This document shows, piece by piece, positions 51,115 through 63,399 of a DNA stretch of 64,000 nt. Below the pieces are notes generated by a model, which searched no databases, was not told the origin of the DNA, and saw only the letters and a program-made list of their open reading frames with translations. This DNA comes from Thermoanaerobaculia bacterium (lineage in GTDB: Bacteria > Acidobacteriota > Thermoanaerobaculia > UBA5066): the NCBI GenBank assembly GCA_038245905.1, contig JBBRRY010000015.1:14611-78610 (forward strand). The letters are read 5' to 3'. Position 1 is the first letter of the stretch. Each line of letters starts with the position of its first letter. A program made the position numbers and the translations under genes.

Positions 51115-52317
51115 ATGCGGATCGACGAGTCCTGTCACGTGGACGAGGACGGGCGCCGCATTTCGCGCACGCGCGCTGGCCTCGGCTCGGGACTCGAGCT
51201 CGTGCTGCCTTCCCCGAGGAAGAAGATCTGGATCAACGTTCCCGTCGTCGAGCCGTTCGCGGCGAGGTCTCCCTTTCTCCTCGTCAAGAGCGGGAGCGGC
51301 TACGCGGTCACGGACACGCGCACGGGCGATCACTATCCCGTCGAGGTGCCTCCCGAGCCAGAGTGGTACTCGTGGAAGACGACGTCCGGCACGGAGATGA
51401 GCCGCGTCGGCGTCCTCCAGGGCACGTACCTCGGGATCTACGTCTCGAATGCGTGCCTTTACTGGAGCCTGCCCGCTTCGCCCGCCTGTGCGTTCTGCAC
51501 GACGGGCCGGAACGTCGGCGAGGCCGAGGAGTCGCGCAAGAGGGTCGAGGACGTCGTCGAGGTTGCGAAGGCCGCGCGCGACCACTCCGGCTCGATCTTC
51601 ACGCACCTGAACACCGGGTATCACTTCGAGGACGTCGACAAGCTCGAGTCGCTCCACGGCCTCCGGCAGTGCGAGCCGTTCGTCAAGGCGGTCCGCGCCG
51701 AGGTCGGCGGCTTCATCGGCGTCCAGGCCGTGCCCGTCCCGCGCCACAAATTCAACGAGTACGACGACCTCATCGCCGCCGGGACGGACCACTTCTCCTT
51801 CTGCTACGAGTTCGAGGATCCCGAGGTGTTTGCGAGACTCTGCCCCGGCAAGGCGCAGACGGTCGGGCAGCACGCGTTCTTCGAGGCGATGGAGTACACG
51901 GCGAAGAAGCTCGGCGAAGGCAAGGTTTCGGGCGAGATCATCGCGGGCCCTGAGCCGATCGACGCGACGAAGCGCGCGATCGACCGCATCGTGAACGCGG
52001 GCGCGTTCCCGACCGTGTGCATCTTCCGGCCCACGCTCGGGAGCGCGATGGAGCACGTCGACCCGCCGAAGCCCGACGACATGAAGGAAGTTTTCGCACA
52101 CCTCTGGCGGGCGGTTACGCGGGCCGGTCTCCCCGTAGGCATCCTCCCGGGAATCCAGGTCTCCCTCGTCGTCCAGCCCGAGGAGGCCGCCGACCTCGTC
52201 CCCGAGACGCTCCGGTCACGCCTCTACGAGACGAAGCTCGCGGCGCTCCGCGCGCTCGCGAGGCCTTATGTCGCATGGAAACGCAGGCCGCGAGGAAGCA
52301 GCTCCACGACGGCCTGA
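51115..52317 (+). CDS. Radical-SAM-like protein with an atypical cysteine motif
   Basis: GIYVSNACLYWSLPASPACAFCTTG gives CX10CX2C instead of CX3CX2C. It is followed by a TIM-barrel-like pattern (..IFTHLNTGY.., ..GFIGVQAVP.., ..GEIIAGPEP..). The family call is tentative. Confidence 0.55.
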   Translation: MRIDESCHVDEDGRRISRTRAGLGSGLELVLPSPRKKIWINVPVVEPFAARSPFLLVKSGSGYAVTDTRTGDHYPVEVPPEPEWYSWKTTSGTEMSRVGVLQGTYLGIYVSNACLYWSLPASPACAFCTTGRNVGEAEESRKRVEDVVEVAKAARDHSGSIFTHLNTGYHFEDVDKLESLHGLRQCEPFVKAVRAEVGGFIGVQAVPVPRHKFNEYDDLIAAGTDHFSFCYEFEDPEVFARLCPGKAQTVGQHAFFEAMEYTAKKLGEGKVSGEIIAGPEPIDATKRAIDRIVNAGAFPTVCIFRPTLGSAMEHVDPPKPDDMKEVFAHLWRAVTRAGLPVGILPGIQVSLVVQPEEAADLVPETLRSRLYETKLAALRALARPYVAWKRRPRGSSSTTA

Positions 52318-52399: not shown

Positions 52400-54325
52400 A
52401 TGCCTGTTCGCGTCCGGTTTCCCGACCTCGACCACTGGAAGGCGCAGGTTAAGTGCCAGGCCGGCTGTCCGGTCGCGACGGACGCCGGACGGTACGTTCA
52501 GCTCATCGCCGAGGGGCGTGACGAGGAGGCGTTTCTCGTCGCCCGGGCGCCCAATCCGTTCGCGTCGGTCTGCGGGCGCGTCTGCGCGGCCCCGTGCGAG
52601 GACGCCTGCCGCCGCGGCTCGATCGACGCGCCGATCTCGATCCGCGCGCTGAAGCGCTTCGTGACGGAACAGTACGGTGTCGAATCGCGGCATCCGGGAA
52701 CGCAGGACAGGTTGCTGAGAGAGCCCATCCTGGAAGGAAACCGCTATTCGGGTCACCTTCCGATGCACTCTTCGGGCGCAAAGAAATCCACCGGTGCTCC
52801 CGGTCCCAAGGTAGCGGTGATTGGCGCCGGACCTGCCGGTCTTTCCGCCGCGCACGACCTCGCGCTCCTCGGCTACGCCGTGACTGTGTTCGAGGCCGCG
52901 GGTGAGCCCGGCGGAATGATGCGCTTCGGCATTCCGGAGTACCGGCTCCCGCGTACGCTCATCAAGGCCGAGATCGACAAGATCCTCTCCCTCGGGGTCA
53001 CGCTGCGCCTCGGGACGGCGCTCACTTCGTCTTTCGGACTCGCGGAGCTTCGCGCCGCGGGCTTCGAGGCCGCCTTTCTCTCGGTCGGCGTGTCGAAGGG
53101 CCGCGATCTCGACATCCCGGGCGTCGAGCTGGACGGTGTCGTGAAGGCGGTCGACTACCTCCTGAACGTGAATCGCGGCTTCCGGATGGACCTCGGCCGC
53201 CGGGTCGTCGTCATCGGCGGCGGGTTCGTGGCGTTCGACGCCGCGCGCACGGCGCTCCGCCTCGGCCGCGAGACCGACGTGGACGCTCGCGAGAAGGCGG
53301 GAGAGGCGGACGCGCGCCTCAAGGAGGCGCTCGACTCCGCGCGCGCCGCGCTGCGCGGAGGCGCGACCGAGGTCACGATCGTCTCTCTCGAGAACTTCGA
53401 GGAGATGCCCGTCCTCCGAAGCACGCAGGGCCACGAGGAGTTCGAGGAGACGAAGAAGGAAGGCGTCGTCTTCGTGCCGCGCCGCGGGCCGAACCGGTTC
53501 CTCGGCAGCGGACGGCTCTCAGCGGTCGAGCTGAAGAGGGTGACGACGGTCTTCGACGCGGAGGGCCGGTTCGCCCCCGCGTACGACGAGTCGGACCTCG
53601 TCAAATTCGAGGCGGATGCCTGCATCCTCGCGATCGGCCAGAAGCCGGACCTCTCGTTCCTGAAACCGGCGGACGGTGTCGCCCTGACGCCGGGCGGCAC
53701 GATCGCGGTCGACCGGACGACCCTCGCGACGTCCGCGCCGGGGATCTTCGCCGGCGGCGACGTCGCGTTCGGGCCGCGGAACCTCATCGAGGCGGTCGCG
53801 AACGGCAAGCGCGCGGCGCGCTCGATCCACGAGCACCTCGCGAAGGAGAAGGCCTCGATCCGCGCGACGCTCGAGATCGAGAAGATCCCGACGATCTCCT
53901 ACCGCATGATCGCGGGCTTCGAGATTCTCGACCGCGAGGCGCCTCCCACGCTCGACGTTGGTCGCCGCACCGGCATCGCGGAAGTCGAAAGCGGTTATGC
54001 GGCTGCCGAGGCGCGCACGCAGGCCGCACGCTGCCTCGTGTGCCACGTCCAGACGATTTACGACCCGGAGGCCTGCGTCCTTTGCAACCGCTGCGTGGAC
54101 GTGTGCCCGGAGTACTGCCTCGCGCTCGTGCCGCTCGAATCGCTCGACCTGTCCGAGGAGGAGCGCGCGGCTCTCGTCGCGCGCGCCGAGGGCAACGGAT
54201 TGCCGCTCTCGGCGATGGTCAAGGACGACGACCGGTGCATCCGCTGCGGCCTCTGCGCCGTCCGGTGCCCGACGGACGCGATGACGATGGAGAAGTTCTC
54301 GATCACGGAGGGATTCCATGAGTGA
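52400..54325 (+). CDS. GltD-like NAD(P)H-dependent flavo-iron-sulfur oxidoreductase with a C-terminal 2x[4Fe-4S] ferredoxin domain
   Basis: N-terminal Cys cluster CQAGCPV..CGRVCAAPCEDAC. VAVIGAGPAGLSAAHDL..FEA..PGGMMRFGIPEYRLP (GltD signature). Second Rossmann motif VVVIGGGFVAFDAA, then GIFAGGDV. C-terminus has CLVCHV..CVLCNRCVDVCP and CIRCGLCAVRCP. Confidence 0.85.
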   Translation: MPVRVRFPDLDHWKAQVKCQAGCPVATDAGRYVQLIAEGRDEEAFLVARAPNPFASVCGRVCAAPCEDACRRGSIDAPISIRALKRFVTEQYGVESRHPGTQDRLLREPILEGNRYSGHLPMHSSGAKKSTGAPGPKVAVIGAGPAGLSAAHDLALLGYAVTVFEAAGEPGGMMRFGIPEYRLPRTLIKAEIDKILSLGVTLRLGTALTSSFGLAELRAAGFEAAFLSVGVSKGRDLDIPGVELDGVVKAVDYLLNVNRGFRMDLGRRVVVIGGGFVAFDAARTALRLGRETDVDAREKAGEADARLKEALDSARAALRGGATEVTIVSLENFEEMPVLRSTQGHEEFEETKKEGVVFVPRRGPNRFLGSGRLSAVELKRVTTVFDAEGRFAPAYDESDLVKFEADACILAIGQKPDLSFLKPADGVALTPGGTIAVDRTTLATSAPGIFAGGDVAFGPRNLIEAVANGKRAARSIHEHLAKEKASIRATLEIEKIPTISYRMIAGFEILDREAPPTLDVGRRTGIAEVESGYAAAEARTQAARCLVCHVQTIYDPEACVLCNRCVDVCPEYCLALVPLESLDLSEEERAALVARAEGNGLPLSAMVKDDDRCIRCGLCAVRCPTDAMTMEKFSITEGFHE

Positions 54326-54824
54326 GCCCCCAAGCCGGCGTGAGGTCTTCCTGAGGCTGGGATTCGGAGCGGGTGTGGCCGCCCTCGGCGTGCAGGCCGT
54401 CGCCTCGCTTCGGTCGCTCGTCCCGAACGTCTCCTACGACTCGCCGACGACCGTGAAGATCGGAATGCCGAACGACTTTCCGGACGGCATGAAGTTCCTC
54501 CCGGACGAGCGGCTGTTCGTGTTCCGGGAAGGGAAGACGCTCCACGCGGTCTCCGCGGTGTGTACGCACCTCGGCTGCACCGTGCGCGCGGAGGCGCTGT
54601 CCGCACCGGAGACGAAGGACGTCAGCGGCAAGCCGCTGCGCCTCACGCACCGCTTCCTCTGTCCGTGCCACGGCTCGAAGTACGCGGGCGACGGCACGAA
54701 CGTGGCGGGCCCGGCGCCGAAGCCTCTCGCCTGGTACCACCTGTCGCTTTCGCCGGACGACGGCCAGCTCGTCGTCGACCTCGCGCAGCCCGTGGAGCGC
54801 GATTTTCGATTCACTCTGGCCTGA
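54318..54824 (+). CDS. Rieske [2Fe-2S] subunit of a cytochrome bc-type complex (Tat signal)
   Basis: SRREVFLRLGFGAGVAALG (Tat). CTHLGCTV and CPCHGSKY Rieske boxes. 8-nt overlap with the upstream gene. Confidence 0.9.
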   Translation: MSEPPSRREVFLRLGFGAGVAALGVQAVASLRSLVPNVSYDSPTTVKIGMPNDFPDGMKFLPDERLFVFREGKTLHAVSAVCTHLGCTVRAEALSAPETKDVSGKPLRLTHRFLCPCHGSKYAGDGTNVAGPAPKPLAWYHLSLSPDDGQLVVDLAQPVERDFRFTLA

Positions 54825-54839
54825 AGGGCGGGACGAGAC

Positions 54840-56189
54840 ATGAGCGTACATCCCGATAAGCCCGCTCCGAAGCCAGACGGCGCGCCCGGCGTCCACGCGA
54901 AGCCGCTCTGGAGCATCCGGCCCGCCTCGGACCGCGAGGCCGGCGACGCCGTCGTCTCCAACTTCCTCCTGCACTGGTTCCCGGCGAAGACGTACAAGCC
55001 GTCCCTCGACTGGAACTACTCGTTCTGGCTCGGCACCGCCTCCGCGGCGCTGCTGCTGCTCGTGACCGTATCGGGGCTGCCGCTCCTCTTCCTGTACGTC
55101 CCGTCCGTCGAGCGCGCGTACGGGTCCGTGAAGGACATCGAGTACGTCACGACGTTCGGTTTCTGGATACGCGCCGTCCACCGCCTCTCCGCGCACCTCA
55201 TGGTGGCCGTCGTCTTCCTCCACATGGTCCGCGTCTTCCTCACCGGCGCATACAAGAACGGGCGTGGGCAGGGGCAGAAAAGGGAGCAGAACTGGGTGCT
55301 CGGCATCGGCCTCCTCCTCCTGACGCTTCTGCTCTCGTTCACGGGCTATCTCCTGCCGTGGGATCAGCTCGCGTACTGGGCGATCACCGTCGGCACGAAC
55401 ATCGCGTCCTCGATCCCGTTCGTCGGGCCAGCGATCCGCGAGCTGCTCCTCGGCGGGCGCGCGATCGACCAGGCCACGCTCATTCGCTTCTACGTTCTCC
55501 ACGTCATCGCGCTGCCGGCGGCGATCGGCGTGATCTTCCTGTACCACATGTGGCGCGTGCGCAAGGACGGCGGACTCGCGCGCGCGGACCAGCTCACGCT
55601 TCTCCCCGAGAAGGCCGCCGAGGCTCCCTCGAAGACGAAGACCTACACGCTCCTCGGCGTCGCGCGCGGGACGTCACCGGCCGTGAAGGCATCGACGCTC
55701 GAGCGTCCGGACACGACCGTCAACTCGGTTCCGGACCTGACGCGGCGGATCCTGATCGTCGTCCTCGCCATCTTTGCGATCGTGAGCATCGCGTCGGTCT
55801 TCTACCACGCGCCGCTCGAGGAGCCCGCGAACGCGCTCGTGACGCCGAACCCCGCGAAGGCACCGTGGTACTTTCTCTGGCTCCAGGAGATCGTGACCGA
55901 CACGACGGTGAAGATCGGCTCGTTCACGATCAACGGCGCCTTCCTCGGCGGCGTTCTGCTGCCGGGGGCGCTCGTCCTGCTCCTCACCGTCTGGCCGTGG
56001 CTCGACAAGAGCGCGCCCGGCTCGGCGGGCCTCTGGTTCCCGAAGGACCGGCGCACGCAGAACGCGGTCTTCCTCGCGTTCGTCGCGGGCGTCCTCGTCC
56101 TCACGTTCATCGGCACGTTCTGCCGCGGGCCGTACTGGCACCTTTACTGGCCGTGGCAGGCGTGGCCCGAGCTGCCGACGAGGATCTGA
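54840..56189 (+). CDS. Cytochrome b (fused b6 + subunit IV type)
   Basis: Bis-His helices RAVHRLSAHLMVAVVFLHMVRVF and FYVLHVIALPAAIGVIFLYHMWRV. PWDQLAYWA (PEWY-region equivalent). 449 aa with extra C-terminal helices. Confidence 0.9.
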   Translation: MSVHPDKPAPKPDGAPGVHAKPLWSIRPASDREAGDAVVSNFLLHWFPAKTYKPSLDWNYSFWLGTASAALLLLVTVSGLPLLFLYVPSVERAYGSVKDIEYVTTFGFWIRAVHRLSAHLMVAVVFLHMVRVFLTGAYKNGRGQGQKREQNWVLGIGLLLLTLLLSFTGYLLPWDQLAYWAITVGTNIASSIPFVGPAIRELLLGGRAIDQATLIRFYVLHVIALPAAIGVIFLYHMWRVRKDGGLARADQLTLLPEKAAEAPSKTKTYTLLGVARGTSPAVKASTLERPDTTVNSVPDLTRRILIVVLAIFAIVSIASVFYHAPLEEPANALVTPNPAKAPWYFLWLQEIVTDTTVKIGSFTINGAFLGGVLLPGALVLLLTVWPWLDKSAPGSAGLWFPKDRRTQNAVFLAFVAGVLVLTFIGTFCRGPYWHLYWPWQAWPELPTRI

Positions 56190-56190
56190 C

Positions 56191-57435
56191 ATGGAAAAAC
56201 GCACGGACTCTCCGTATCCGCGTCTCGACCGCCCGATCCTGGCCGTCGTCGGCGTCCTCCTTGTCATCTCGTGCGCGCTCTTCGCGTGGAGCGACCGCAA
56301 CCACGACTGGCGCTACTACCAGGCCACGTTCCGGGCCCAGGTCGCGGAGAAGCTTGGAGCCGAGAAAGCGAAGGAGCTGCACCCGGGTCTCCAGCAGGTG
56401 TGGGTCGCCGATCTCAAGCGCGCCGACCGCTGCATGACGTGCCATCAGGCGGCCCTCTGGAAGGGTTTCGAGACCGCAGAAGAGCCGCTCCGGACGCATC
56501 CGGCGGGACCGTTTCGGAACCACCCCGTCGAGAAATTCGGCTGCACGTCCTGCCACGGCGGACAGGGCTATGCCGTGGACGCGACGGAGGCCCATGGACT
56601 GATCGAGCACTGGGAGGAGCCGCTGCTCGGCAGGACCCTCGGCGAGGCCTACTCGCTCGTGGACGACAAGAACGCGGCCATGCAGATGAACTGCAACGTC
56701 TGCCACCGGTACGACCGCGAGACGAAGGGCGCCGACGCGATCAACCTCGGCAAGAAGCTCGTGGTTGAGAAGGGCTGCCGCGCGTGTCACGTCGTGAACG
56801 GGCGTGGCGGCTCGATCGGACCGGACCTGACGAACGTGGGCGAGAAGGCGGCCGAGCAGTACGAATACGGCCGTCTCTCGGGGCAGAAGACATCGTTCGC
56901 GTGGCACGTCGCGCACTTCAAGGACCCTCGTGCACTCGCGCCCGAGACCGTCATGCCGAACTTCCACTTTTCGACGAAAGAGGCGCAGGCCCTCTCGATG
57001 CTCGTTCTCTCGTGGCGGAGGGCGCCGGTTCCGGCCGACTACCGCCCGGGAACGCCTCGCACGGACCCGCAGACGGCGGCCGAGGTCGAAGCCGAGGCGA
57101 AGATGAAGACCGGCCCGGGCGCGTGGTTCGTCAAGACGGGCTGCTTCGTCTGCCACTCGATTCAGGCGCTGGGCGTGAAGAGCCCCGCGCAGATCGGGCC
57201 GGACCTCTCGACGGCGGTCGAGGACGTGCAGTCGCGCTTCGGCCGGACTCTCGACGACTTCCTGAGGGAGCCCACGGGCACGATGTCGGTCGTCCTCTCG
57301 CGCCAGATCATCCTGACTCCCGAAGAAAAGGCCATCGCCGTCGGAAAGCTCCGCGAGGCGTTCGCGGAGTACCAGAAACAGAAAGCGGAGGACGCGAAGG
57401 GAAAGAAACCCGCGGCCTCCATCGCCGCCCACTGA
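56191..57435 (+). CDS. Membrane-anchored pentahaem c-type cytochrome
   Basis: N-terminal TM helix ILAVVGVLLVISCALFAW. Five CxxCH motifs: CMTCH, CTSCH, CNVCH, CRACH, CFVCH. Starts 1 nt after the cytochrome b stop. Confidence 0.85.
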   Translation: MEKRTDSPYPRLDRPILAVVGVLLVISCALFAWSDRNHDWRYYQATFRAQVAEKLGAEKAKELHPGLQQVWVADLKRADRCMTCHQAALWKGFETAEEPLRTHPAGPFRNHPVEKFGCTSCHGGQGYAVDATEAHGLIEHWEEPLLGRTLGEAYSLVDDKNAAMQMNCNVCHRYDRETKGADAINLGKKLVVEKGCRACHVVNGRGGSIGPDLTNVGEKAAEQYEYGRLSGQKTSFAWHVAHFKDPRALAPETVMPNFHFSTKEAQALSMLVLSWRRAPVPADYRPGTPRTDPQTAAEVEAEAKMKTGPGAWFVKTGCFVCHSIQALGVKSPAQIGPDLSTAVEDVQSRFGRTLDDFLREPTGTMSVVLSRQIILTPEEKAIAVGKLREAFAEYQKQKAEDAKGKKPAASIAAH

Positions 57436-57466
57436 GGATCACGCCTCGAGCCGAAGGAGAAGAGAA

Positions 57467-59338
57467 ATGAGACAAGCCTCCGGGAAATGGAAAGCCACCG
57501 CCGCGATCGCGTCGATCTTTGCGGCCGCCCTCGTGGCCTGGCAGTGTGCGCCCTCGGCGCCGAAGGGCGCGAAGAAGGGTCCCGCGAACGCCTCGGACCA
57601 GTCCGTCGCGGCGATGAAAACCTACGTGGCCCCGGGCGATCTAGACGAGTTCTACATGTTCGCGTCCGGTGGGCACTCGGGGCAGGTCTACGTCTACGGA
57701 ATCCCGTCGATGCGGCACCTCTCGACGATCCCCGTCTACACGCCGTATCCCGCCACCGGCTACGGTTTCGACGACGAGTCGAAGGCGATGCTCGGGAACC
57801 TGACATGGGGCGATGCTCACCACCCGGCGTTGTCGGAGACGAACGGCGACTACGACGGCCGCTGGCTCTTCATCAACGACATGAACGGCCGCATCGCGCG
57901 AATCGATCTCAGGGACTTCAAGACGAAGCAGATTTTCGGGCCGGTCCCGAACGTGTCGGGCAACCACTCCGGATCGTACGTCACGCCGAACACCGAGTAC
58001 GCGATGATGGGGTCGCGGTTCTCGATCCCGATCCCGAAGGGCAAGGTCCTTCCCCTCGATAAATACGCGACGGAATGGAAGGGCGTGCTCGCCGCCATCA
58101 AGATCGACCCGAAGACGGGCACGATGTCGCTCGCCTGGCAGATCCTGATGCCTCCCTTCGACTACGACCTCGGCGACGCCGGTAAGAAAGTCTCTGACGG
58201 CTGGATGTTCTGGACCTGCTACAACGCCGAGCGTGCAACAGGCAAGCTCGAGGTCACGGCCTCGCAGCGCGACCGCGATTACATCGCGGCCGTGGACTGG
58301 CGGGCGGCCCAGAAAGCGATCGACGAGGGGAAAGGAGACCTGATCGGCGGCGTGAAGGTCCTCGACCCGAAGAAGGTGCCGGGGATCGTGTGGCTCATGC
58401 CGTGCGGCAAGTCGCCTCACGGCGTGGACGTCTCGCCCGACGGCAAGTACATCGTCGGCTCGGGCAAGCTCCAGGGTGTCACGACCGTCTTCAACTTCGA
58501 GAAGATCCAGACGGCGATCCGCAACAAGGACCTTACCGGCGACGAGGACGGGATCCCCGTCCTGAAGTACGAGTCGATCAAGGACGCCGAGGTCGCGGTG
58601 GGCCTCGGCCCCCTCCACACGCAGTTCGGGCCGGACGGCTACGCGTACACGTCGCTCTTCGTCGACAGCGCGATCGCGAAGTGGAAGCTCGGCACCTGGG
58701 AGGTCGTGGACAAGATCCCGATGTCCTACTCGATCGGCCACCTCGCGGCCGCCGAGGGCGACACCTGCACGCCGAAGGGCAAGTACCTCGTCGGTCTGAA
58801 CAAGCTGTCGCACGGCCGGCATCTGTCGGTGGGGCCCGGGCAGCCGGAGTCGTCGCAGCTCGTCGATATTTCCGAGGAGAAGATGAAGCTTCTCTACGAC
58901 GCGTTCACGGAGCCCGAGCCGCACTACGCCCAGATCGTCCTTGCGAAGACACTCCATCCGATCGAGGTCTATCCCAAGGAAGAGAACAAGAACCCGCTCG
59001 CGATCTGGGATCTCAAGGACGCCGGCGTCACGCGCGCGGGAACGAACGTCACGGTGAAGGTCGTCCTCGTGCGCTCCACGATCACGCCGCAGGCCATCGA
59101 GGTGAACCAGGGAGACACTGTGAAAATCGCACTGACGAACATCGAGCAAACGACGGACGAGCTGCACGGCTTCGGCCTGCTCGACTACAACATCAACATC
59201 GTGTGCGATCCGGGTGAGACCAAGGTCGTCACGTTCAAGGCCGACAAGCCGGGTGTCTTCCCGTACTACTGCACGAACTTCTGCTCCGCGCTCCACCAGG
59301 AGATGCAGGGCTACCTCATCGTGAAGGGAAAAAGCTGA
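57467..59338 (+). CDS. nosZ: Nitrous-oxide reductase NosZ, Sec-type (clade II)
   Basis: GDAHHPALSETNGDYDGRWLFINDMNGRIARIDL (CuZ His region). CuA site ELHGFGL...YCTNFCSALHQEMQGYLIV (CX3CX3HX2M). The N-terminus MRQASGKWKATAAIASIFAAALVAWQ lacks a twin-arginine motif. Strong RBS GAAGGAGAAG. Confidence 0.95.
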   Translation: MRQASGKWKATAAIASIFAAALVAWQCAPSAPKGAKKGPANASDQSVAAMKTYVAPGDLDEFYMFASGGHSGQVYVYGIPSMRHLSTIPVYTPYPATGYGFDDESKAMLGNLTWGDAHHPALSETNGDYDGRWLFINDMNGRIARIDLRDFKTKQIFGPVPNVSGNHSGSYVTPNTEYAMMGSRFSIPIPKGKVLPLDKYATEWKGVLAAIKIDPKTGTMSLAWQILMPPFDYDLGDAGKKVSDGWMFWTCYNAERATGKLEVTASQRDRDYIAAVDWRAAQKAIDEGKGDLIGGVKVLDPKKVPGIVWLMPCGKSPHGVDVSPDGKYIVGSGKLQGVTTVFNFEKIQTAIRNKDLTGDEDGIPVLKYESIKDAEVAVGLGPLHTQFGPDGYAYTSLFVDSAIAKWKLGTWEVVDKIPMSYSIGHLAAAEGDTCTPKGKYLVGLNKLSHGRHLSVGPGQPESSQLVDISEEKMKLLYDAFTEPEPHYAQIVLAKTLHPIEVYPKEENKNPLAIWDLKDAGVTRAGTNVTVKVVLVRSTITPQAIEVNQGDTVKIALTNIEQTTDELHGFGLLDYNINIVCDPGETKVVTFKADKPGVFPYYCTNFCSALHQEMQGYLIVKGKS

Positions 59339-59357
59339 AGAAGGGATCCTTACCAAG

Positions 59358-60005
59358 ATGAAGAACATCCTCGCGAAGAGCAATCGGTTTCTGGAGCTAC
59401 CTCTCGATCTCGGGCCTCGCGGCCTCCTCTTGGTGGCCGTCCTCCTCCTCGTCCCGTCGTACTTGTTCCCGCTCTGGACCCTCACGATGTTCGCGCCCCA
59501 GTACGGCGACGGCCTGCGGATGCAGATCTACAGCTGGAGGCTGGACGGCGGGAACGGCGGCCAGGACATCAAGGAGATCAACGTACTCAACCACTACATT
59601 GGCATGCGCGACCTCACGACGGCGGACTTCACGGAATTCAAGTGGATTCCGTTCGTCGTGGGCATCCTGGCTCTCCTCATGCTGCGGACGGCCGTCCTCG
59701 GGAAGATGTCGCACCTCCTGGACAACGTCGTGCTCTATCTCTACTTCGGCGCGTTCTCGCTCTGGTCGTTCGCGTTCAAGCTCTGGAGCTACGGGCACAA
59801 CCTCGCCTCGACGGCGGCCGTGAAGGTCGACCCGTTCATGCCCCCGATGTTCGGCTACAAGAAGCTCGCGAATTTCGAGGTCTATTCGTATCCGGGTGTC
59901 GGGTCGTATGCCCTCGGCCTCGTCGCGGTCGTCCTCGTCCTCGCGATGGCGCTCGCCGTGCGCGGGGGCAGACGCTTGTCCGCAAGCGCCGCCGGCTCCT
60001 CATGA
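59358..60005 (+). CDS. nosB: NosB-like integral membrane protein (clade II nos accessory)
   Basis: Four TM segments and a periplasmic loop ..MFAPQYGDGLRMQIYSWRL..INVLNHYIGM. The position directly after nosZ and the ATGA overlap with nosD match clade II clusters. Confidence 0.65.
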   Translation: MKNILAKSNRFLELPLDLGPRGLLLVAVLLLVPSYLFPLWTLTMFAPQYGDGLRMQIYSWRLDGGNGGQDIKEINVLNHYIGMRDLTTADFTEFKWIPFVVGILALLMLRTAVLGKMSHLLDNVVLYLYFGAFSLWSFAFKLWSYGHNLASTAAVKVDPFMPPMFGYKKLANFEVYSYPGVGSYALGLVAVVLVLAMALAVRGGRRLSASAAGSS

Positions 60006-61360
60006 TCGCCTTGCCCTTCGTCCTTCTCCTGCAAGTCACCGGCAACATGGAGCCGGTGACGCCGGGGGGACTCGAGGGGCGCCCGCCCACGGCGGAGGCG
60101 TCCGCGCTGCAGGCGCGCGTGGACCGCGCGTCGCCGGGAGAGACTGTCGTCGTCGAGCCGGGCACGTACGCGGGGGATCTCGTGCTGGACCGTCCCGTCC
60201 GTCTCGTGGGCCGGGGGCGGCCTCTCCTCATGGGTTCCGGAAAAGGGAGCGTCGTGCGCGTGCGAGCGGACGGCGTCGTTCTCGAAGGATTCGACATCGA
60301 CGGCCGGAGGGGCGGCGATCTCGGGAGAGATTCCTCGGGTGTCCACGTCGCCGCCCGAAACGTCGTCGTCCGCGACTGCCGGATCTCGGAGGCCCTGTTT
60401 GGAATCTACCTCCGGCAGGCAGACGGCGTCGTCGTGGAGCGCTGCCGCATCCGCGGCATCCACGGCAAGGATCCGGGAGAGAAGGGCTCGGGCCTGCACG
60501 TCTGGGACACGAAGGGCTTCATGTTCAGGGACAACGTCATCGAGGACGTGCGCGACGGCTTCTACATCCAGTCCTCCTCGGGCGGGACGATCGCGGGCAA
60601 CGTGGCGCGGGACCTCCGTTACGGCCTCCACTACATGTTCTCGGACGACAACACGTTCGAAGACAACACCTTCGAGAATGGCGCGGCCGGCGCGGCGCTC
60701 ATGTACAGCAAGCGCATCGTCTTCCGGCGCAACCGCTTCGTGAGGAACCGCGGATTCGCGTCGGTGGGGCTGCTCTTCAAGGCCTGCGACGACGTCCTCG
60801 CCGAGGACAACCTCATCGCGGACAACGCGCGCGGGATCTTCCTCGAGGGCTCGTACCGGAATATCTTCCGGGGAAACGTCGTAGCTCTCTCGGACGCCGC
60901 GATCGTCCTCTACGACTCGTGCGGCCAGAACCGTTTCGAGGGCAACTCGTTCGTCGGAAACCTGACGCCTCTCGCGCTCGTCGGGCAGCGAACGGACACC
61001 GTCTTCGACGGGAACTACTGGTCGGACAACCGCGAGCCGGATCTCGACGGCGACGGTCGCTCGGACCGGCCGTTCCCGCTCTCGAGCGTCTTCGACCACC
61101 TGCGAGGAAACCTCACGGCCGCGGACCTCTTTTCGCGGAGCGTGGCGGCCCGCGCGCTCGGGGCCGCGGAGCGTGGCTTTCCCGTGCTCCGGGAGGTCGA
61201 AGTCTTCGACCACACGCCGCTCGCGCACCCGCCGGCGCTCCCACGCGTTCCGCGGCCCGAAAGGCCGCCCGCGGGACGCGGGGCGCTCGCGCTCGCCGTG
61301 TCCGGCCTCTCGCTCCTCGGCGGCGCCGGTGTGCTTCTCACGGGGCGGAGGCAGGCGTGA
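60002..61360 (+). CDS. nosD: NosD, periplasmic parallel beta-helix copper-insertion accessory protein
   Basis: Internal ATG at 60002 (MIALPFVLLLQ..). ..PGTYAGDLVLDRPVRLVG.., then repeated beta-helix turns (GIYLRQADGVVVERCRI.., GLHVWDTKG.., GFYIQSSSG.., YGLHYMFSDDNTFEDN.., GIFLEGS..). C-terminal TM segment. Confidence 0.9.
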   Translation: MIALPFVLLLQVTGNMEPVTPGGLEGRPPTAEASALQARVDRASPGETVVVEPGTYAGDLVLDRPVRLVGRGRPLLMGSGKGSVVRVRADGVVLEGFDIDGRRGGDLGRDSSGVHVAARNVVVRDCRISEALFGIYLRQADGVVVERCRIRGIHGKDPGEKGSGLHVWDTKGFMFRDNVIEDVRDGFYIQSSSGGTIAGNVARDLRYGLHYMFSDDNTFEDNTFENGAAGAALMYSKRIVFRRNRFVRNRGFASVGLLFKACDDVLAEDNLIADNARGIFLEGSYRNIFRGNVVALSDAAIVLYDSCGQNRFEGNSFVGNLTPLALVGQRTDTVFDGNYWSDNREPDLDGDGRSDRPFPLSSVFDHLRGNLTAADLFSRSVAARALGAAERGFPVLREVEVFDHTPLAHPPALPRVPRPERPPAGRGALALAVSGLSLLGGAGVLLTGRRQA

Positions 61361-62097
61361 TCCGCTTCGAGTCCTTCTCGAAGAGCTTCGGCGCCCAGCG
61401 CGCCGTCTCGGACCTGACTCTCGCGATCGCGCCCGGAGAGATCGTCGCGCTCCTGGGGCCGAACGGCTCGGGAAAGACGACCTCGCTGAAGGCCGCCGCG
61501 GGCCTGATCCATCCGACGAAGGGCGGCGTCACCGTTGGCGAGGCCCGGCGGCCCGCGACCGAGCCCGCGGCGCGCCTCTCGCTCTCCTTCCTTCCGCAGA
61601 AGGTGTCCTTTCCCGACTCCCTGACGGGGCGCGAGGTCCTCGACTTCTACCGCGCGCTCCGGGGCGTGCCGCCGGGGCGCGTCGACGCCGTCCTCAGGAT
61701 GTCGTCCTTGAACGGAGCTTCGGCCCGCGCGGTGGGAACGTACTCGGGTGGCATGGCGCAGCGGCTCGGGCTCGCCGTCGCCGCGCTGCCCGACACGCCG
61801 ATTCTTCTCCTCGACGAGCCGACGGCCGCGCTCGACCCTGACGGGCTCCGCGCGTTCTACACGCTCGCGGAGGAGCGCCGTCGCGACGGCAAGACCGTCC
61901 TCTTCACGACGCATCAGCTCGGGGACGTCGAGCGCCTCGCGGACCGTGTCGCAATCCTCGTGGGCGGGAGGCTCGTCGCGCTCCTGACGCGGCGCGCGCT
62001 CGAGGACTGGCTCCTCGCGCACGGAGTTCCGCTCGTGCGCGCCGAGACGAGTCCGCTCGAGGACCTGTATCGGGAGCTCGTCGGGGAGGAAACGTGA
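61357..62097 (+). CDS. nosF: NosF, ABC transporter ATP-binding protein
   Basis: GTG start in a GTGA overlap with nosD. GPNGSGKTT (Walker A), YSGGMAQRLGLA (signature) and ILLLDEPT (Walker B). Confidence 0.9.
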   Translation: MIRFESFSKSFGAQRAVSDLTLAIAPGEIVALLGPNGSGKTTSLKAAAGLIHPTKGGVTVGEARRPATEPAARLSLSFLPQKVSFPDSLTGREVLDFYRALRGVPPGRVDAVLRMSSLNGASARAVGTYSGGMAQRLGLAVAALPDTPILLLDEPTAALDPDGLRAFYTLAEERRRDGKTVLFTTHQLGDVERLADRVAILVGGRLVALLTRRALEDWLLAHGVPLVRAETSPLEDLYRELVGEET

Positions 62098-62552
62098 ACG
62101 CCCGCGCGCTCCCCGTCGCACTCCTCCTCGCCGCCCTGGCGGGCTGCTCGCGCGGCCCTGCGGCGCCCATCGCGGTCGACACGAAGAACGACCGCTGCGC
62201 CTGGTGCCGTATGGCCGTGTCGGACGCGCGCTTCGCCGCGCAGCTCGTGTCGCCGTCGGAGGAGCCCCGCGCGTTCGACGACATCGGATGCCTTGCGACG
62301 TTCCTGAAATCGGGCGGCGCTCCCGCGAAGGGACAGGTCGCCTACGTGGCCGACCACCGCACGAAGGCGTGGGTGCGCGCGGCGGGCGCGGTCTACACGA
62401 AGAAACCCGGCCTCGCGACGCCGATGGGCTCCGGCCTCGTCGCCCACGCGGAGGCCGCGTCCCGCGACGCGGACGCCGAGGCTGTGGGCGGGAGCCCGGT
62501 TTCCCGAGAGGACGTGTTCGGTCCTAACGGCGCCCCGGACGGCGGCCGATGA
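62094..62552 (+). CDS. nosL: NosL copper-chaperone lipoprotein
   Basis: GTGA overlap with nosF. Lipobox LAALAGCS. CAWCRMAV..., FDDIGC.. and ..TPMGSGLVA are NosL-family motifs. Confidence 0.85.
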   Translation: MNARALPVALLLAALAGCSRGPAAPIAVDTKNDRCAWCRMAVSDARFAAQLVSPSEEPRAFDDIGCLATFLKSGGAPAKGQVAYVADHRTKAWVRAAGAVYTKKPGLATPMGSGLVAHAEAASRDADAEAVGGSPVSREDVFGPNGAPDGGR

Positions 62553-62559
62553 GCGCGAC

Positions 62560-63399
62560 ATGAGCGCTTCTCCCGGCCCCTTCCTCCTCTGCGCGCGGCA
62601 GGAGCTGCTTCTCGCGGTCCGCTCCCGCTGGACCCAGATTTTCGCGGCGGTCTTCGCGGTGCTCGCTCTCGCCGTCGCGTCTTCGGGCTACGTGCTCTCG
62701 GGCGGCCACGGCGTGCAGGACTTCGCGCGCACGGCGGCGTCGCTCGTCGAGCTGGTGCTCCTCCTCGTGCCCCTCACTGCGCTCCTGATCGGGGTCCTCG
62801 CGCTCGCCCCCGAGCGCGGAGCGGCGGAGCTGCTCTTCTCGCAGCCGGTCGCGCGGCGCGCGATCCTCTTCGGCAAGGTCACGGGCCTGTTCGGCGCGCT
62901 CGCCGCGGCGCAGGCCGTCGGGTTCGGCGCGGCCGGCCTCGTCATCTTCTCGCGGGCGGGCGGCTCAGGGCTCGGCGGCTTCGCGCTTCTGATCCTCGGA
63001 TCGTTCGTTCTGACGGCGGTCTTCCTTGTCCTGGCGGCGCTCGTCTCGTCAGGAACCGTGGGTCGCCGTACGCGGGCGCTTGCGATCGCGCTCGTCGTGT
63101 GGTTCGGCGCCGTCGTGCTGTTCGACGTGGCCGCGCTCGGATTCGCCTCGCTCCTCCCGTCCGGTCCCGCATCGCGCGTCCTCATCGTGTCGGTGCTCGT
63201 GAATCCCGCGGATGCGGTCCGGACCGGCGCGCTTCTGGGGATCGAGGGAAGCGGCGCCTTCGGTGCGGCATCCCTCGCGCTTCTGCGCTTCACGCACGGT
63301 CCCGTCGGCGCCGCAATCCTCCTCGCCGCTTCTCTCCTCGTCTGGATGGTCGTGCCGGCTCTGCTCGCCGCGCGCCGGCTGGACAGGGCGGATCTCTGA
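62560..63399 (+). CDS. nosY: NosY, ABC-2 type permease
   Basis: Six TM segments. ARQELLLAVRSRW.. N-terminus, ..NPADAVR.. motif, and cluster context. Confidence 0.85.
   Translation: MSASPGPFLLCARQELLLAVRSRWTQIFAAVFAVLALAVASSGYVLSGGHGVQDFARTAASLVELVLLLVPLTALLIGVLALAPERGAAELLFSQPVARRAILFGKVTGLFGALAAAQAVGFGAAGLVIFSRAGGSGLGGFALLILGSFVLTAVFLVLAALVSSGTVGRRTRALAIALVVWFGAVVLFDVAALGFASLLPSGPASRVLIVSVLVNPADAVRTGALLGIEGSGAFGAASLALLRFTHGPVGAAILLAASLLVWMVVPALLAARRLDRADL

Follow-up and report, generated by a model that had tools for sequence, protein, structure and literature searches.

In the 64-kb window (the whole stretch of DNA analyzed), genes for a predicted quinol-oxidizing membrane complex with an extra NAD(H)-binding FeS flavoprotein lie directly upstream of the gene for the enzyme responsible for breaking down the greenhouse gas N2O. 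We give about even chances to the reading that these genes encode a four-subunit flavo-Rieske/cytochrome b complex that is devoted to the clade II NosZ encoded next to it and performs quinol-driven NAD+ reduction. As judged by sequence comparison, the family to which it belongs is widespread and conserved, is marked by a cytochrome b bearing an APWY motif, and displays subunit-by-subunit homology to Kustd1480-85 of the anammox bacterium Kuenenia.

Organization of the nos Gene Cluster

The cluster extends over positions 52400-63399, and the ORF listing places five tightly packed genes on its + strand at 52400-59338. The first (52400..54325) encodes a cytoplasmic NfnB/GltD-type flavoprotein of 641 aa, assigned by Pfam, NCBIfam, and PDB matches together with AlphaFold2/Foldseek. 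It overlaps by 8 nt the gene of a Rieske [2Fe-2S] protein of 168 aa (54318..54824; Pfam Rieske, E = 1.1e-11), which is followed after a 15-nt gap by that of a 449-aa fused cytochrome b6 plus subunit IV (54840..56189; Pfam and alignment to solved b6 structures) and, after a further 1 nt, by that of a membrane-anchored periplasmic pentaheme cytochrome c of 414 aa (56191..57435; CXXCH motifs and Pfam). A gap of 31 nt separates the latter from the gene of a Sec-dependent clade II NosZ of 623 aa (57467..59338), which scored 894.8 bits against TIGR04246 (Sec-dependent NosZ; cut-off 625) and carries neither a CXXCH motif nor a cytochrome c domain.

Downstream of nosZ, Pfam searches and gene position gave the order nosB-D-F-L-Y, also on the + strand. 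The gene in the nosB position (59358..60005) encodes a 215-aa membrane protein without a Pfam or NCBIfam match. Of the 22 nos-linked loci, 20 have a counterpart of it (45-94% identity) directly 3' of nosZ; in the remaining two, the contig stops within ~360 bases of nosZ. This position, combined with the account of nosB in He 2024 (PMC11096178), points to NosB. The following genes encode NosD (60002..61360; Pfam NosD, E = 1.1e-40), the ABC ATPase NosF (61357..62097; ABC_tran, E = 8.2e-26), NosL (62094..62552; NosL, E = 3.7e-7), and the ABC-2 permease NosY (62560..63399; ABC2_membrane_2, E = 1.2e-16). The starts of nosD, for which the mechanical ORF begins at 59642, and of nosF are inferred, the former gene occupying the same place in loci L001 and L002 and the latter being syntenic with them.

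The nos cluster lacks nosX, and the remaining ORFs of the 64-kb window are all without the ferredoxin motif CxxCxxCxxxCP and have at most one CXXCH motif each; therefore, genes resembling those of NosR (mentioned for clade I nos clusters in PMC11409646), NosG, and NosH are absent there. The preliminary description of this DNA had named the genes and their packing, and both proved correct in every detail checked (ORF coordinates, domains, and motifs). Its further suggestion of a quinol-oxidizing bc module serving NosZ fits the nosZ-B-D-F-L-Y synteny and the absence of nosR, nosG, and nosH from the window. [quoted passage not shown] Both systems would take menaquinol electrons through Rieske/cytochrome b to a Sec-type NosZ, with nosB after nosZ; in contrast to Wolinella, the window has its bc genes inside the nos cluster, accompanied by the flavoprotein and the pentaheme cytochrome c, lacks NosG, H, C1, and C2, and encodes a NosZ devoid of the cytochrome c domain.

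The Flavoprotein Subunit

Pfam and NCBIfam searches divided the flavoprotein into Fer4_20 (residues 17-91), Pyr_redox_2 (137-469), and a C-terminal 2x[4Fe-4S] ferredoxin domain with the motifs C559xxCxxCxxxCP and C613xxCxxCxxxCP. Motifs and structure match together indicate an NfnB-like fold with four sites for FeS clusters. Neither a signal peptide nor a membrane segment was found in its sequence, in keeping with the cytoplasmic location deduced earlier from the lack of a signal peptide. The best PDB sequence matches were NfnA (9n5u), NfnABC (9bov/9bp5), and NfnI-L (5jca), and the AlphaFold2 model (pLDDT 83.4) had 9bov_A as its top Foldseek match (E = 4.8e-41). The structure match reported for Kuste4570 by Hauser 2025 (PMC12954380) is 9bp5, which is the same protein as 9bov.

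The bifurcating transhydrogenases NfnAB and NfnABC/StnABC (PDB 4ylf, 5jca, 9bov/9bp5, 9n5u, and 8oh5) thus have an NfnB-like module that matches the window flavoprotein in fold and sequence, with two FeS sites at the N terminus, FAD, and a pyridine-nucleotide domain. Unlike these enzymes, the window flavoprotein has no NfnA-, HydB-, or HydC-type partner genes, its partners being membrane cytochromes, and bifurcation, if any, would occur at the quinol site instead of the flavin. The NADPH motif of these enzymes is also replaced: at the end of β2 of the NAD(P) domain, the window protein has 'SLE' in place of the 'YRR' of the NADPH-dependent NfnB, NfnI-L, NfnA, and the Kuenenia subunit. Since 'SLE' replaces 'YRR', the predicted cofactor is NADH, not NADPH. 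As for the acceptor of this branch, none of the features analyzed pointed to ferredoxin.

The Rieske, Cytochrome b, and Cytochrome c Subunits

The Rieske protein begins with a twin-arginine stretch ('SRREVFL') and a membrane anchor, and its cluster-binding boxes read CTHLGC (box I) and CPCHGSKY (box II). The Ser/Tyr pair in box II, present also in Kuste4569, predicts a Rieske protein of the high-potential type. Its two best PDB matches were 9rk3 (Kustd1480) and 9rk4 (Kuste4569), for which potentials of +335 mV (Ser/Phe) and +303 mV (Ser/Tyr), respectively, have been measured.

In the cytochrome b, the Pfam domains Cytochrome_B (59-243) and Cytochrom_B_C (329-428) correspond to a fusion of b6 and subunit IV, and alignment to solved b6 structures showed that the four His ligands of hemes bL and bH are kept. 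APWY forms the Qo motif (residues 341-344), an additional His45 lies in the N-terminal n-side extension, and position 63 is occupied by Trp, the heme c_n cysteine being absent. The pentaheme cytochrome c has a single N-terminal hydrophobic helix and CXXCH motifs at residues 81, 118, 168, 196, and 318, arranged as a triheme segment followed by two class-I-like monoheme domains; Pfam detected Cytochrom_C at residues 186-269 and a FixO-like stretch.

Homology to the Anammox Complexes and Conservation of the Module

In Kuenenia stuttgartiensis, Kustd1480-1485 and Kuste4569-4574 constitute Rieske/cytochrome b complexes in which one of the subunits is an NAD(P) oxidoreductase (Kartal et al. 2013, as a proposal; Hauser et al. 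2025, PMC12954380). The anammox parallel, initially drawn as an analogy, turned out to be a true homology, as all four subunits match a locus of the kustd1480-85 type. The flavoprotein aligns over its full length with the Kustd1483-type subunit (34% identity, E = 3e-113), the cytochrome b is 46% identical to Kustd1481, and the pentaheme cytochrome c matches part of the Kustd1485-type multiheme subunit (31% identity over ~300 residues, E = 9e-36). Common to both systems are the flavoprotein architecture (Fer4_20, FAD/NAD domains, and 2x[4Fe-4S]), a cytochrome b of the b6 type, and the APWY Qo motif inside an identical 'TPNPAKAPWYFL' stretch. His62 of Kustd1481, which AF3 predicts to bind an extra n-side heme b, has His45 as its counterpart in the window, and R622 of the flavoprotein corresponds to R550 of Kustd1483. 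The His and the Arg predicted to hold this heme, at the modeled cytochrome b/flavoprotein interface, are both conserved.

The two systems also differ in several respects. The gene order is flavo-Rieske-b-c in the window and Rieske-b6-flavo-SUIV-c in Kuenenia, where b6 and SUIV are separate genes instead of a fusion, and the cytochrome c has five hemes in 414 aa as opposed to a multiheme subunit of 945 aa. An insertion of ~30 residues in the NAD domain distinguishes the window flavoprotein from that of Kuenenia, as does the nucleotide site ('SLE', NADH predicted, versus 'YRR', NADPH predicted). The Kuenenia protein has the heme c_n cysteine that the window cytochrome b lacks, and the n-side chemistry should therefore differ from that of the modeled anammox complex. 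Finally, the partner is NosZ in the window and an HAO-like or other partner in Kuenenia, and the host is a probable heterotroph as opposed to an anammox chemolithoautotroph.

A flavoprotein subunit in such an operon had been regarded as unusual in the preliminary description; instead, it is the rule for this cytochrome b clade. In 81 of 86 loci, which span more than ten phyla, a flavoprotein homolog has Rieske and cytochrome b genes directly after it on the same strand (median distance to the first match, 92 nt); the loci are spread through Acidobacteriota, Myxococcota, Bacteroidota, Kryptoniota, Calditrichota, Ignavibacteria, Binatota, Verrucomicrobiota, Planctomycetota, Zixibacteria, Chloroflexota, and Actinomycetota. 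The other neighbors vary among the linked loci, and the linkage is kept through lineage-specific orders (flavo-Rieske-b, flavo-b-Rieske, and Rieske-b-flavo-SUIV, the last in Kuenenia). Exceptions include L082, where 4.5 kb separates the flavoprotein gene from the bc genes upstream of it, and L085, where the flavoprotein gene adjoins CcoG-like and P-type ATPase genes. His45 is invariant (81/81 loci), the R622 position is occupied by Arg in about 78 of 82, and APWY occurs in 79 of 80 loci, Kuenenia included. Flavoprotein identity to the window correlates with that of cytochrome b (Spearman 0.79) and of Rieske (0.66; n = 80), a correlated divergence that fits co-evolving subunits. No experimental work on members of this family was found in the literature searched.

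Most family members are not adjacent to nosZ. Whether GltD-like and Rieske/cytochrome b genes also sit together beside nosZ in other genomes, a point raised at the outset, is answered by 22 independent loci with the same gene order, in which the upstream flanks differ and the downstream order is constant; the arrangement is far beyond chance. Together with the window, these loci form a single clade in both the flavoprotein and the cytochrome b trees, which takes in cultured Anaeromyxobacter.

Proposed Electron Flow and Alternative Explanations

Synteny and the AF3 model of a homolog 34-46% identical suggest that the four proteins assemble into a single complex. For the preferred reading, we infer how electrons reach NosZ, which way the flavoprotein branch runs, which nucleotide it uses, and the complex I loop as follows. 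Menaquinol would be oxidized at the Qo site, the first electron passing through the high-potential-type Rieske cluster and the anchored pentaheme cytochrome c to CuA of NosZ for periplasmic N2O reduction. The second would enter the very low-potential hemes bL and bH, cross the membrane, and continue, probably via an extra heme b held by His45 between two cytochrome b monomers, through the four FeS clusters of the flavoprotein to FAD, where NAD+ (predicted over NADP+) would be reduced. Complex I could then re-oxidize the NADH, returning the electrons to the quinone pool while pumping protons.

The sequence proxies, namely the high-potential-type Rieske, the His for the extra n-side heme, and the four-cluster wire, agree with quinol-driven NAD(P)+ reduction. 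By the symmetry argument of Hauser 2025 (PMC12954380), with menaquinone at ~-70 mV, heme bN would lie near -315 to -345 mV, a range sufficiently low to reduce NAD+ (-320 mV). By our own estimate, the energetics are marginal at standard potentials; the transmembrane step opposes the membrane potential, perhaps adding 100-150 mV to the 250 mV uphill, and the host organisms are probably heterotrophs without an obvious need for reverse electron flow.

It is possible, if doubtful, that the flavoprotein of the same complex serves instead as the electron input, forming a built-in non-pumping NADH:quinone reductase. Electrons would move from NADH through FAD, the FeS wire, and the n-side hemes to menaquinone in the Qi site or close to it, and this would keep feeding the Q cycle as NosZ takes electrons out at Qo. 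This resembles the role proposed for ferredoxin:NADP+ reductase (FNR), which binds to the chloroplast cytochrome b6f complex, in cyclic flow; that system likewise joins a b6-type complex to an n-side pyridine-nucleotide flavoprotein, although FNR has an unrelated fold and no FeS wire, binds loosely, and is encoded elsewhere. The NADH-type motif would suit an electron donor equally well, NADH being the catabolic carrier, and the module occurs in many probable heterotrophs, with loci assigned to the largely aerobic families Acidobacteriaceae and Bryobacteraceae, in which reducing power should not be limiting. The step would be ~250 mV downhill and should need no transmembrane electron transfer, and a quinone may be able to approach near the n-side heme (Hauser 2025, PMC12954380). 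However, as the same authors argue, it would waste ~250 mV that complex I would conserve. It also leaves unexplained the invariant extra His45 and the constant pairing of this cytochrome b clade with a high-potential-type Rieske in presumed menaquinone organisms; APWY cytochromes b pair only with mid-plus to high-potential Rieske proteins, as Kao and Hunte (2014, PMC4122944) established independently.

We consider it unlikely that the module works for NosZ as a conventional Q-cycle quinol:cytochrome c reductase, co-transcribed with a separate, undocked soluble flavoenzyme such as an NAD(P)H:ferredoxin-type oxidoreductase. The flavoprotein lacks a membrane segment, none of the five long relatives checked is a natural fusion with cytochrome b, and L082 and L085 break the pattern. 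Against this stand the adjacency to Rieske and cytochrome b genes in 81/86 loci with varying neighbors, the persistence of this linkage through changes in gene order, the correlated divergence of flavoprotein and cytochrome b, and the conservation of the His and Arg that meet at the modeled interface.

By its established biochemistry, NosZ consumes electrons, and the complex must therefore run forward, from quinol to cytochrome c. Reverse running, in which high-potential electrons from cytochrome c and low-potential ones from NADH would meet at Qo to reduce menaquinone, is highly improbable. The architecture is reversible in principle, and APWY has been taken as a mark of reverse-operating complexes, as in the Geobacter p-cresol case, although no APWY complex has been characterized according to that source (Kao and Hunte 2014, PMC4122944). 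The APWY clade as described there shares with our loci the Qo motif, Ser-Phe or Ser-Tyr Rieske pairing, and a mixture of lineages (delta-Proteobacteria, Chloroflexi, Planctomycetes, and Actinobacteria), with no linked flavoprotein mentioned in the portion available. In contrast to the reverse operation proposed there, the linkage to nosZ, a terminal reductase, argues for forward operation at least in this subclade, and the 64-kb window contains no gene for a periplasmic enzyme that would donate electrons.

An equally slim chance attaches to a NosR-like maintenance branch, in which the flavoprotein would deliver low-potential cytoplasmic electrons to keep the copper sites of NosZ active instead of conserving energy: the cluster lacks nosR and nosX, but most family members lie away from nosZ, so the flavoprotein role is not specific to NosZ, and the n-side hemes have no apparent route to the periplasm except Qo. 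In clade I nos clusters, NosR likewise ties a flavin and two cytoplasmic [4Fe-4S] clusters to the electron supply of NosZ, but it is a membrane protein whose FMN domain is periplasmic, is non-homologous to the window flavoprotein, and does not belong to a Rieske/cytochrome b complex.

Implications

Within the searchable literature, discussion of this four-part complex was found for anammox bacteria only, yet it is conserved in many other phyla. If the proposed loop through complex I is true, the energy yield per N2O would be raised.

Organization of the nosZ-Adjoining Gene Cluster

Five ORFs on the forward strand make up the core of the cluster, and the ORF list matched exactly the gene coordinates and packing proposed in the preliminary description, with an 8-nt overlap between the first two genes followed by gaps of 15, 1, and 31 nt. 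The first encodes a 641-aa flavoprotein (52400-54325, +) harboring Fer4_20, Pyr_redox_2, and a C-terminal 4Fe-4S dicluster domain, and is followed by genes for a 168-aa Rieske protein (54318-54824, +), a 449-aa cytochrome b (54840-56189, +), and a 414-aa c-type cytochrome (56191-57435, +) exhibiting five CXXCH motifs and a single N-terminal hydrophobic helix; the domains in the first three proteins were assigned with Pfam/NCBIfam. Since Cytochrome_B and Cytochrom_B_C were found in one protein, the cytochrome b gene comprises a fused b6/subunit IV. The fifth ORF encodes a 623-aa NosZ (57467-59338, +), which matched TIGR04246 with 894.8 bits against a cut-off of 625 and is of the Sec-dependent clade II form, the TAT-type NCBIfam model reaching only 430.6, under its cut-off of 625; no haem domain was detected in this NosZ.

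A 215-aa hydrophobic protein, to which no Pfam or NCBIfam family model matched, is encoded 19 nt 3' of nosZ in the nosB position. A protein in this position was also observed in 20 of the 22 nos-linked loci of our comparison (drawn from the best 80 of at least 393 stretches plus six), and the remaining two contigs stop within about 360 bases past nosZ. Genes for NosD, NosF, NosL, and NosY (Pfam) lie further downstream. Apart from the flavoprotein and the pentahaem cytochrome c, no ORF in the 64-kb window bears a CxxCxxCxxxCP motif of the ferredoxin type or at least two CXXCH motifs, so equivalents of NosR, NosG, and NosH are absent from the window. The presence of nosD/F/Y/L together with the absence of nosR and nosX across the 64 kb fits a clade II nos cluster. 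Close homologues come from MAGs of Thermoanaerobaculia and other Acidobacteriota, and the remainder of the window consists of unrelated housekeeping genes. Promoter and terminator scans gave counts at chance level and revealed no FNR box, and are thus neutral on co-transcription.

Conservation of the Four-Gene Module

A search of 1.84 billion representatives retrieved 3,368 flavoprotein relatives at E ≤ 1e-30, many of the top matches being 600-650 residues long and aligned across almost the entire query. Twenty diverse relatives were aligned, and a scan of one genome per GTDB species yielded at least 393 stretches encoding a flavoprotein relative. The best 80 of these, five close relatives, and one Kuenenia-type locus (L086) totaled the 86 loci analyzed here. 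In 81 of these 86 regions (best 80 of at least 393, plus six), the Rieske and cytochrome b genes are located 3' of the flavoprotein gene on the same strand, with a median of 92 nt from the flavoprotein gene to the first Rieske/cytochrome b match. The flavoprotein had been regarded in the preliminary description as an unusual attachment to a bc operon; this frequency reveals instead an anatomy that is ordinary for its clade. Among the five exceptions, three (L049, L051, and L081) are on contigs that end within 1,130 bases after the flavoprotein gene, two of them within 10, and a fourth (L082) carries the bc genes 4.5 kb upstream. In the fifth, a Holophagales MAG (L085, 501-4869), a cytochrome c fragment precedes the flavoprotein homologue (44% identity), and genes for a CcoG/FixG-like polyferredoxin in the membrane and for a P-type ATPase come after it, a setting suggestive of cbb3-oxidase assembly.

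The loci spread through Acidobacteriota, Myxococcota, Bacteroidota, Kryptoniota, Calditrichota, Ignavibacteria, Binatota, Verrucomicrobiota, Planctomycetota, Zixibacteria, Chloroflexota, and Actinomycetota. The order of the genes is not fixed, the sequence flavoprotein, cytochrome b, Rieske being found in Chloroflexota and Actinomycetota (L045, L053, L059, L063, L069, L072, L075, and L079), and the linkage among the three genes is nevertheless kept within this set based on the best 80 of at least 393 stretches. Flavoprotein identity to the window also correlates with the corresponding values for cytochrome b (Spearman 0.79) and the Rieske protein (0.66). What lies past the cytochrome c gene is variable (a monohaem cytochrome c, unrelated genes, or, in one locus, a Tat molybdoenzyme plus a ferredoxin), which marks the four-gene module as generic rather than nos-specific. 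Together, these comparisons show conservation of the four-subunit module across more than ten phyla.

Two further features of individual loci were recorded. Many Terriglobia loci have a split cytochrome b and a cytochrome c with 8-10 haems. In a non-nos member from a Victivallales MAG (L083, 15618-18964), genes for a 906-aa Tat-type molybdopterin oxidoreductase and a four-cluster ferredoxin come after the module; a complex of this kind is apparently connected there to another terminal enzyme of the periplasm.

A nosZ-Linked Branch

The preliminary description had raised the question of whether GltD-like genes are linked to Rieske/cytochrome b genes beside clade II nosZ in other genomes, and the survey answers it in the affirmative: nosZ follows the cytochrome c gene in 22 of the 86 loci (best 80 of at least 393, plus six), and these 22 together with the window form a single clade in neighbor-joining trees of the flavoprotein and of the cytochrome b. 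The only other members of this clade, L018 and L020, are on contigs that end short of the expected nosZ site. The clade spans Thermoanaerobaculia, Vicinamibacterales, Terriglobia, Anaeromyxobacteraceae, Bacteroidota, Kryptoniota, Calditrichaceae, and Ignavibacteriaceae, and includes the cultured Anaeromyxobacter sp. PSR-1 (L012). Between the close relatives and the window, the ten-gene downstream order is constant despite differing upstream flanks, which harbor PPK2 in L001, a radical SAM gene in L002 and the window, and a MerR-like gene in L003. These trees and gene orders show one monophyletic branch of the module genetically tied to clade II NosZ.

The upstream flanks were also inspected individually. 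In the window, 82 nt separate the end of a 400-aa "variant radical SAM" gene (51115-52317, +) from the flavoprotein gene downstream; its product scores 159.5 bits with NF045502 (cut-off 125) and is akin to the MSMEG_0568 family. In the relatives L002-L006, homologues with 71-82% identity adjoin this nos cluster or lie no more than 8 kb away, sometimes in two copies on the opposite strand, and none was found in L001. As the upstream neighbors differ among loci, a partnership of this gene with the flavoprotein was rejected as a general explanation. Two Thermoanaerobaculia MAGs, L003 (5842-9108) and L005 (1-1313), encode upstream an MtrA-like multihaem cytochrome, an MtrB/PioB-type porin, an NnrS/ScdA fusion, and a Crp/Fnr regulator, and a 78-aa MerR-type HTH gene in these loci stops 3 nt short of the flavoprotein gene.

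Homology to the Kuenenia Complexes

For anammox bacteria, Rieske/cytochrome b complexes that include an NAD(P) oxidoreductase subunit were reportedly put forward, as a hypothesis, by Kartal in 2013, and the preliminary description had drawn this parallel. Our comparison substantiates it as homology of each subunit. The two best PDB sequence matches of the window Rieske protein were 9rk3 and 9rk4, which correspond to Kustd1480 and Kuste4569, the Rieske subunits of two Kuenenia complexes containing an NAD(P) oxidoreductase (Hauser 2025, PMC12954380). Starting from a 9rk3 fragment, we found the Kuenenia-type locus L086, which encodes a Rieske protein, b6, a 566-aa flavoprotein whose domains are arranged as in that of the window, subunit IV, and a 945-aa multihaem cytochrome c. 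The window and L086 flavoproteins (L086:10523-12223) share 34% identity over their full length (E 3e-113), the cytochromes b 46% (E 1e-55), and the cytochromes c 31% across about 300 residues (E 9e-36). As in Kuenenia Kustd1480-85, genes for the Rieske protein, a multihaem cytochrome c, and a b6-type cytochrome b that includes a subunit IV part lie together, and the same cluster holds a GltD/NfnB-like FAD/FeS flavoprotein gene. The window's complex departs from the Kuenenia one in the order of its genes, its fusion state, the size of its cytochrome c, its predicted nucleotide, and its partner enzyme.

Conserved residues on the n-side (cytoplasmic side) extend this likeness in part. Cytochrome b His45, which lies within an N-terminal extension absent from solved b6 proteins, was invariant in 81 of 81 loci (from the set based on the best 80 of at least 393) and aligns with Kustd1481 His62, a residue that, in an AlphaFold3 (AF3) prediction only, ligates an extra n-side haem b lying between the monomers (Hauser 2025, PMC12954380). 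Likewise, flavoprotein R622 aligns with Kustd1483 R550, which contacts the propionates of this extra haem in the AF3 model (Hauser 2025, PMC12954380), and the position is Arg in about 78 of 82 loci of the same best-80-based set. The Cys of the n-side haem c_n, in contrast, is found within the Kuenenia "TWCMGG", whereas the window exhibits "SFWLGT" with Trp63 in its place; among 81 loci (again based on the best 80 of at least 393), this Cys was observed in L086 only, the position having been checked against solved b6 structures.

Cytochrome b and Rieske Features

The window cytochrome b carries APWY (residues 341-344) rather than PEWY as its quinol-oxidizing (Qo) motif. APWY was present in 79 of 80 related loci (set based on the best 80 of at least 393) and is shared with Kuenenia within the near-identical stretch "TPNPAKAPWYFL". 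On account of this motif, the module family is placed in the "APWY clade", which in Kao and Hunte 2014 (PMC4122944) is described as of mixed phylogeny, paired exclusively with Ser-Phe or Ser-Tyr Rieske proteins, and having no characterized member. The window Rieske protein is likewise of the Ser-Tyr type, with the boxes CTHLGC and CPCHGSKY and the disulfide cysteines present. Throughout the loci of the best-80-based set (80 of at least 393), box II conserves its Ser, and two positions further on most of the nos clade has Tyr and most other loci have Phe. These correspondences show that the four-subunit module coincides with the APWY cytochrome b clade. Taking the Ser/Tyr pair as a proxy, the window Rieske protein is predicted to be of the high-potential type; potentials of +303 mV for Kuste4569 (Ser/Tyr) and +335 mV for Kustd1480 (Ser/Phe) have been measured (Hauser 2025, PMC12954380).

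Alignment to solved b6 structures revealed that the four His ligands of haems bL and bH are kept, as in canonical b6f/bc complexes. The lack of the haem c_n Cys, the extra conserved His, and the linked flavoprotein suggest an n-side that would differ from that of a canonical Q-cycle complex. The best NCBIfam matches of the fused cytochrome b were ExtP and ExtQ of the Geobacter selenite/tellurite operon, both under their cut-offs (229.9 against 290 and 75.5 against 150); membership in these families was rejected, the proteins being related rather than members. This hints that the Rieske/cytochrome b unit of the ext operon may be a relative of the same clade.

Flavoprotein Family and Nucleotide Site

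The AlphaFold2 model of the flavoprotein (pLDDT 83.4) had NfnABC 9bov as its best structural match, and the structural match reported for Kuste4570 is 9bp5, the same protein as 9bov (Hauser 2025, PMC12954380). Identity as a glutamate synthase or Nfn subunit was rejected, given scores of 179 for TIGR01317 (cut-off 447.7) and 273 for TIGR01316 (cut-off 471.75), and is further opposed by conserved Rieske and cytochrome b neighbors in 81 loci of the 86-locus set (best 80 of at least 393, plus six). At the end of β2 in the nucleotide domain, "IVSLEN" of the window aligns with "IVYRRT" of Thermotoga NfnB. The NADPH-type "YRR" is present in Kuenenia, Thermotoga NfnB, Pyrococcus NfnI-L, and NfnA 9n5u, and is replaced by "SLE" in the window; (S/C/A)LE occupies this position in nearly all non-anammox loci among the 86 (best 80 of at least 393, plus six). 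Loss of both arginines with gain of a glutamate is the classical Rossmann-fold mark of a preference for NADH over NADPH, and NADH rather than NADPH is thus the predicted nucleotide. Just before strand β2, the NAD(P) domain also bears an insertion of about 30 residues (292-319, within about residues 290-322) relative to the Kuenenia and Nfn proteins, which was poorly modeled (pLDDT < 50) and looks like a repeat of the preceding helix ("FDAARTALRLG" and "LDSARAALRGG").

Many JGI records of homologues bear the names "formate dehydrogenase (NADP+) beta subunit" or "glutamate synthase beta subunit-like", which are probably misleading given the constant Rieske and cytochrome b neighbors. The former name, carried by several homologues, was rejected because a molybdopterin subunit is not adjacent in the window, and is treated here as an automatic mis-annotation; such a subunit was found near the module in one related locus only (L083, after the cytochrome c gene) of the 86 (best 80 of at least 393, plus six). 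Among five long relatives, no natural flavoprotein-cytochrome b fusion was found, the additional parts being TPR, receiver, or flavodoxin domains. Flavin-based bifurcation through two FeS branches from FAD was also considered and set aside; in the AF3 model of the Kuenenia homologue, all four clusters stand in one chain (Hauser 2025, PMC12954380).

Proposed Mechanism and Alternatives

Because NosZ consumes electrons, the complex must run forward, from quinol through cytochrome c to NosZ. That the gene products form one complex carrying electrons along this route is highly probable, and the two C-terminal class-I-like monohaem domains of the pentahaem cytochrome c would be the likely donors to the CuA of NosZ. 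The flavoprotein branch may in turn reduce NAD+, a reading that we judge plausible, if not quite probable. Menaquinone, which we take to be the quinone of these lineages, bears on this point, menaquinol standing at about -70 mV and NAD+/NADH at -320 mV. If a Rieske protein of the high-potential type works on menaquinol, the b haems must be of very low potential, and haem bN has been estimated at -315 to -345 mV (Hauser 2025, PMC12954380). Such haems would be wasteful on menaquinone and would be matched to NAD+/NADH at -320 mV, and the invariant His for an extra n-side haem together with a four-cluster FeS wire could provide the path to the flavoprotein. On account of these implied potentials, this match, and this path, a Kartal-type scheme is favored: a flavo-Rieske/cytochrome b complex running forward to NosZ with NAD+ reduction would be the best explanation overall, and we hold our confidence in it as evenly balanced. 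If complex I re-oxidized the NADH, the loop would translocate, by our own rough count, about six charges per N2O against two for a plain Q cycle.

Several considerations weigh against this scheme. Having to carry an electron against the membrane potential would leave the energetics marginal, and the host organisms are probably heterotrophs. The n-side also appears unlike that of the anammox model, haem c_n being missing, and an NADH-type site would equally suit NADH as donor. The main rival accordingly holds NADH to be the input, reducing quinone on the n-side; we regard it as unlikely, while ranking it first among the alternatives. Less likely still, and in our view quite improbable, is a flavoprotein acting as a separate soluble enzyme, the flavoprotein gene keeping its place beside the Rieske and cytochrome b genes in 81 of the 86 loci (best 80 of at least 393, plus six). 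For the anammox complexes, too, the literature searched yielded no experimental proof of flavoprotein docking or of quinol-driven NAD(P)+ reduction. Operation in reverse, although suggested in print for APWY complexes, is very improbable, as the nosZ linkage argues against it, and a NosR-like maintenance role, conceivable in a cluster devoid of NosR, has hardly any chance for a module that is not nos-specific.

Novelty and Implications

Clade II nos clusters have reportedly been drawn with Rieske, cytochrome b, and cytochrome c genes since Sanford et al. in 2012. More recently, the genes in question were labeled just Fe-S, Rieske, cy-b, and cy-c (He et al. 2024, PMC11096178). Complexes of Rieske/cytochrome b with an NAD(P) oxidoreductase subunit are known as a hypothesis and are discussed in the open literature searched only for anammox bacteria; the flavoprotein gene in nos clusters or outside anammox is undiscussed there, papers on Zixibacteria, Nitrospina, Ignavibacterium, and FeS-flavoenzymes included, and subscription reviews may differ. 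Within the same open literature, three observations were not found, some of which subscription reviews may mention: the identity of the "Fe-S" gene as an NfnB-type flavoprotein homologous to the anammox subunit, its role as the constant companion of APWY-type cytochrome b across phyla, and the fixation of one clade of the module to nosZ.

In a broader and more tentative proposal, possible rather than probable, the flavo-Rieske/cytochrome b complex would comprise a widespread, unrecognized class of respiratory enzyme performing quinol-based electron bifurcation with pyridine nucleotide as the low-potential acceptor, in the nosZ-linked form of which the strongly exergonic reduction of N2O would drive NAD+ reduction. 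The anatomy of the module in the window is ordinary for its clade, yet the clade represents an uncharacterized type of respiratory enzyme. Anammox bacteria grow slowly, lack a genetic system, and hold the complex inside an internal organelle. With the nosZ-linked branch, cultivable bacteria provide a tractable system in which the 2013 hypothesis can be tested directly and, if the proposal is true, the Kartal-type anammox scheme would move to cultivable organisms with a simple gaseous oxidant. Some clade II N2O reducers, Anaeromyxobacter among them, have reportedly shown higher growth yields, and quinol bifurcation, if true, would give a molecular reason for them. The finding also bears on the energy conservation of clade II N2O reducers, which are important N2O sinks in soils and wastewater.
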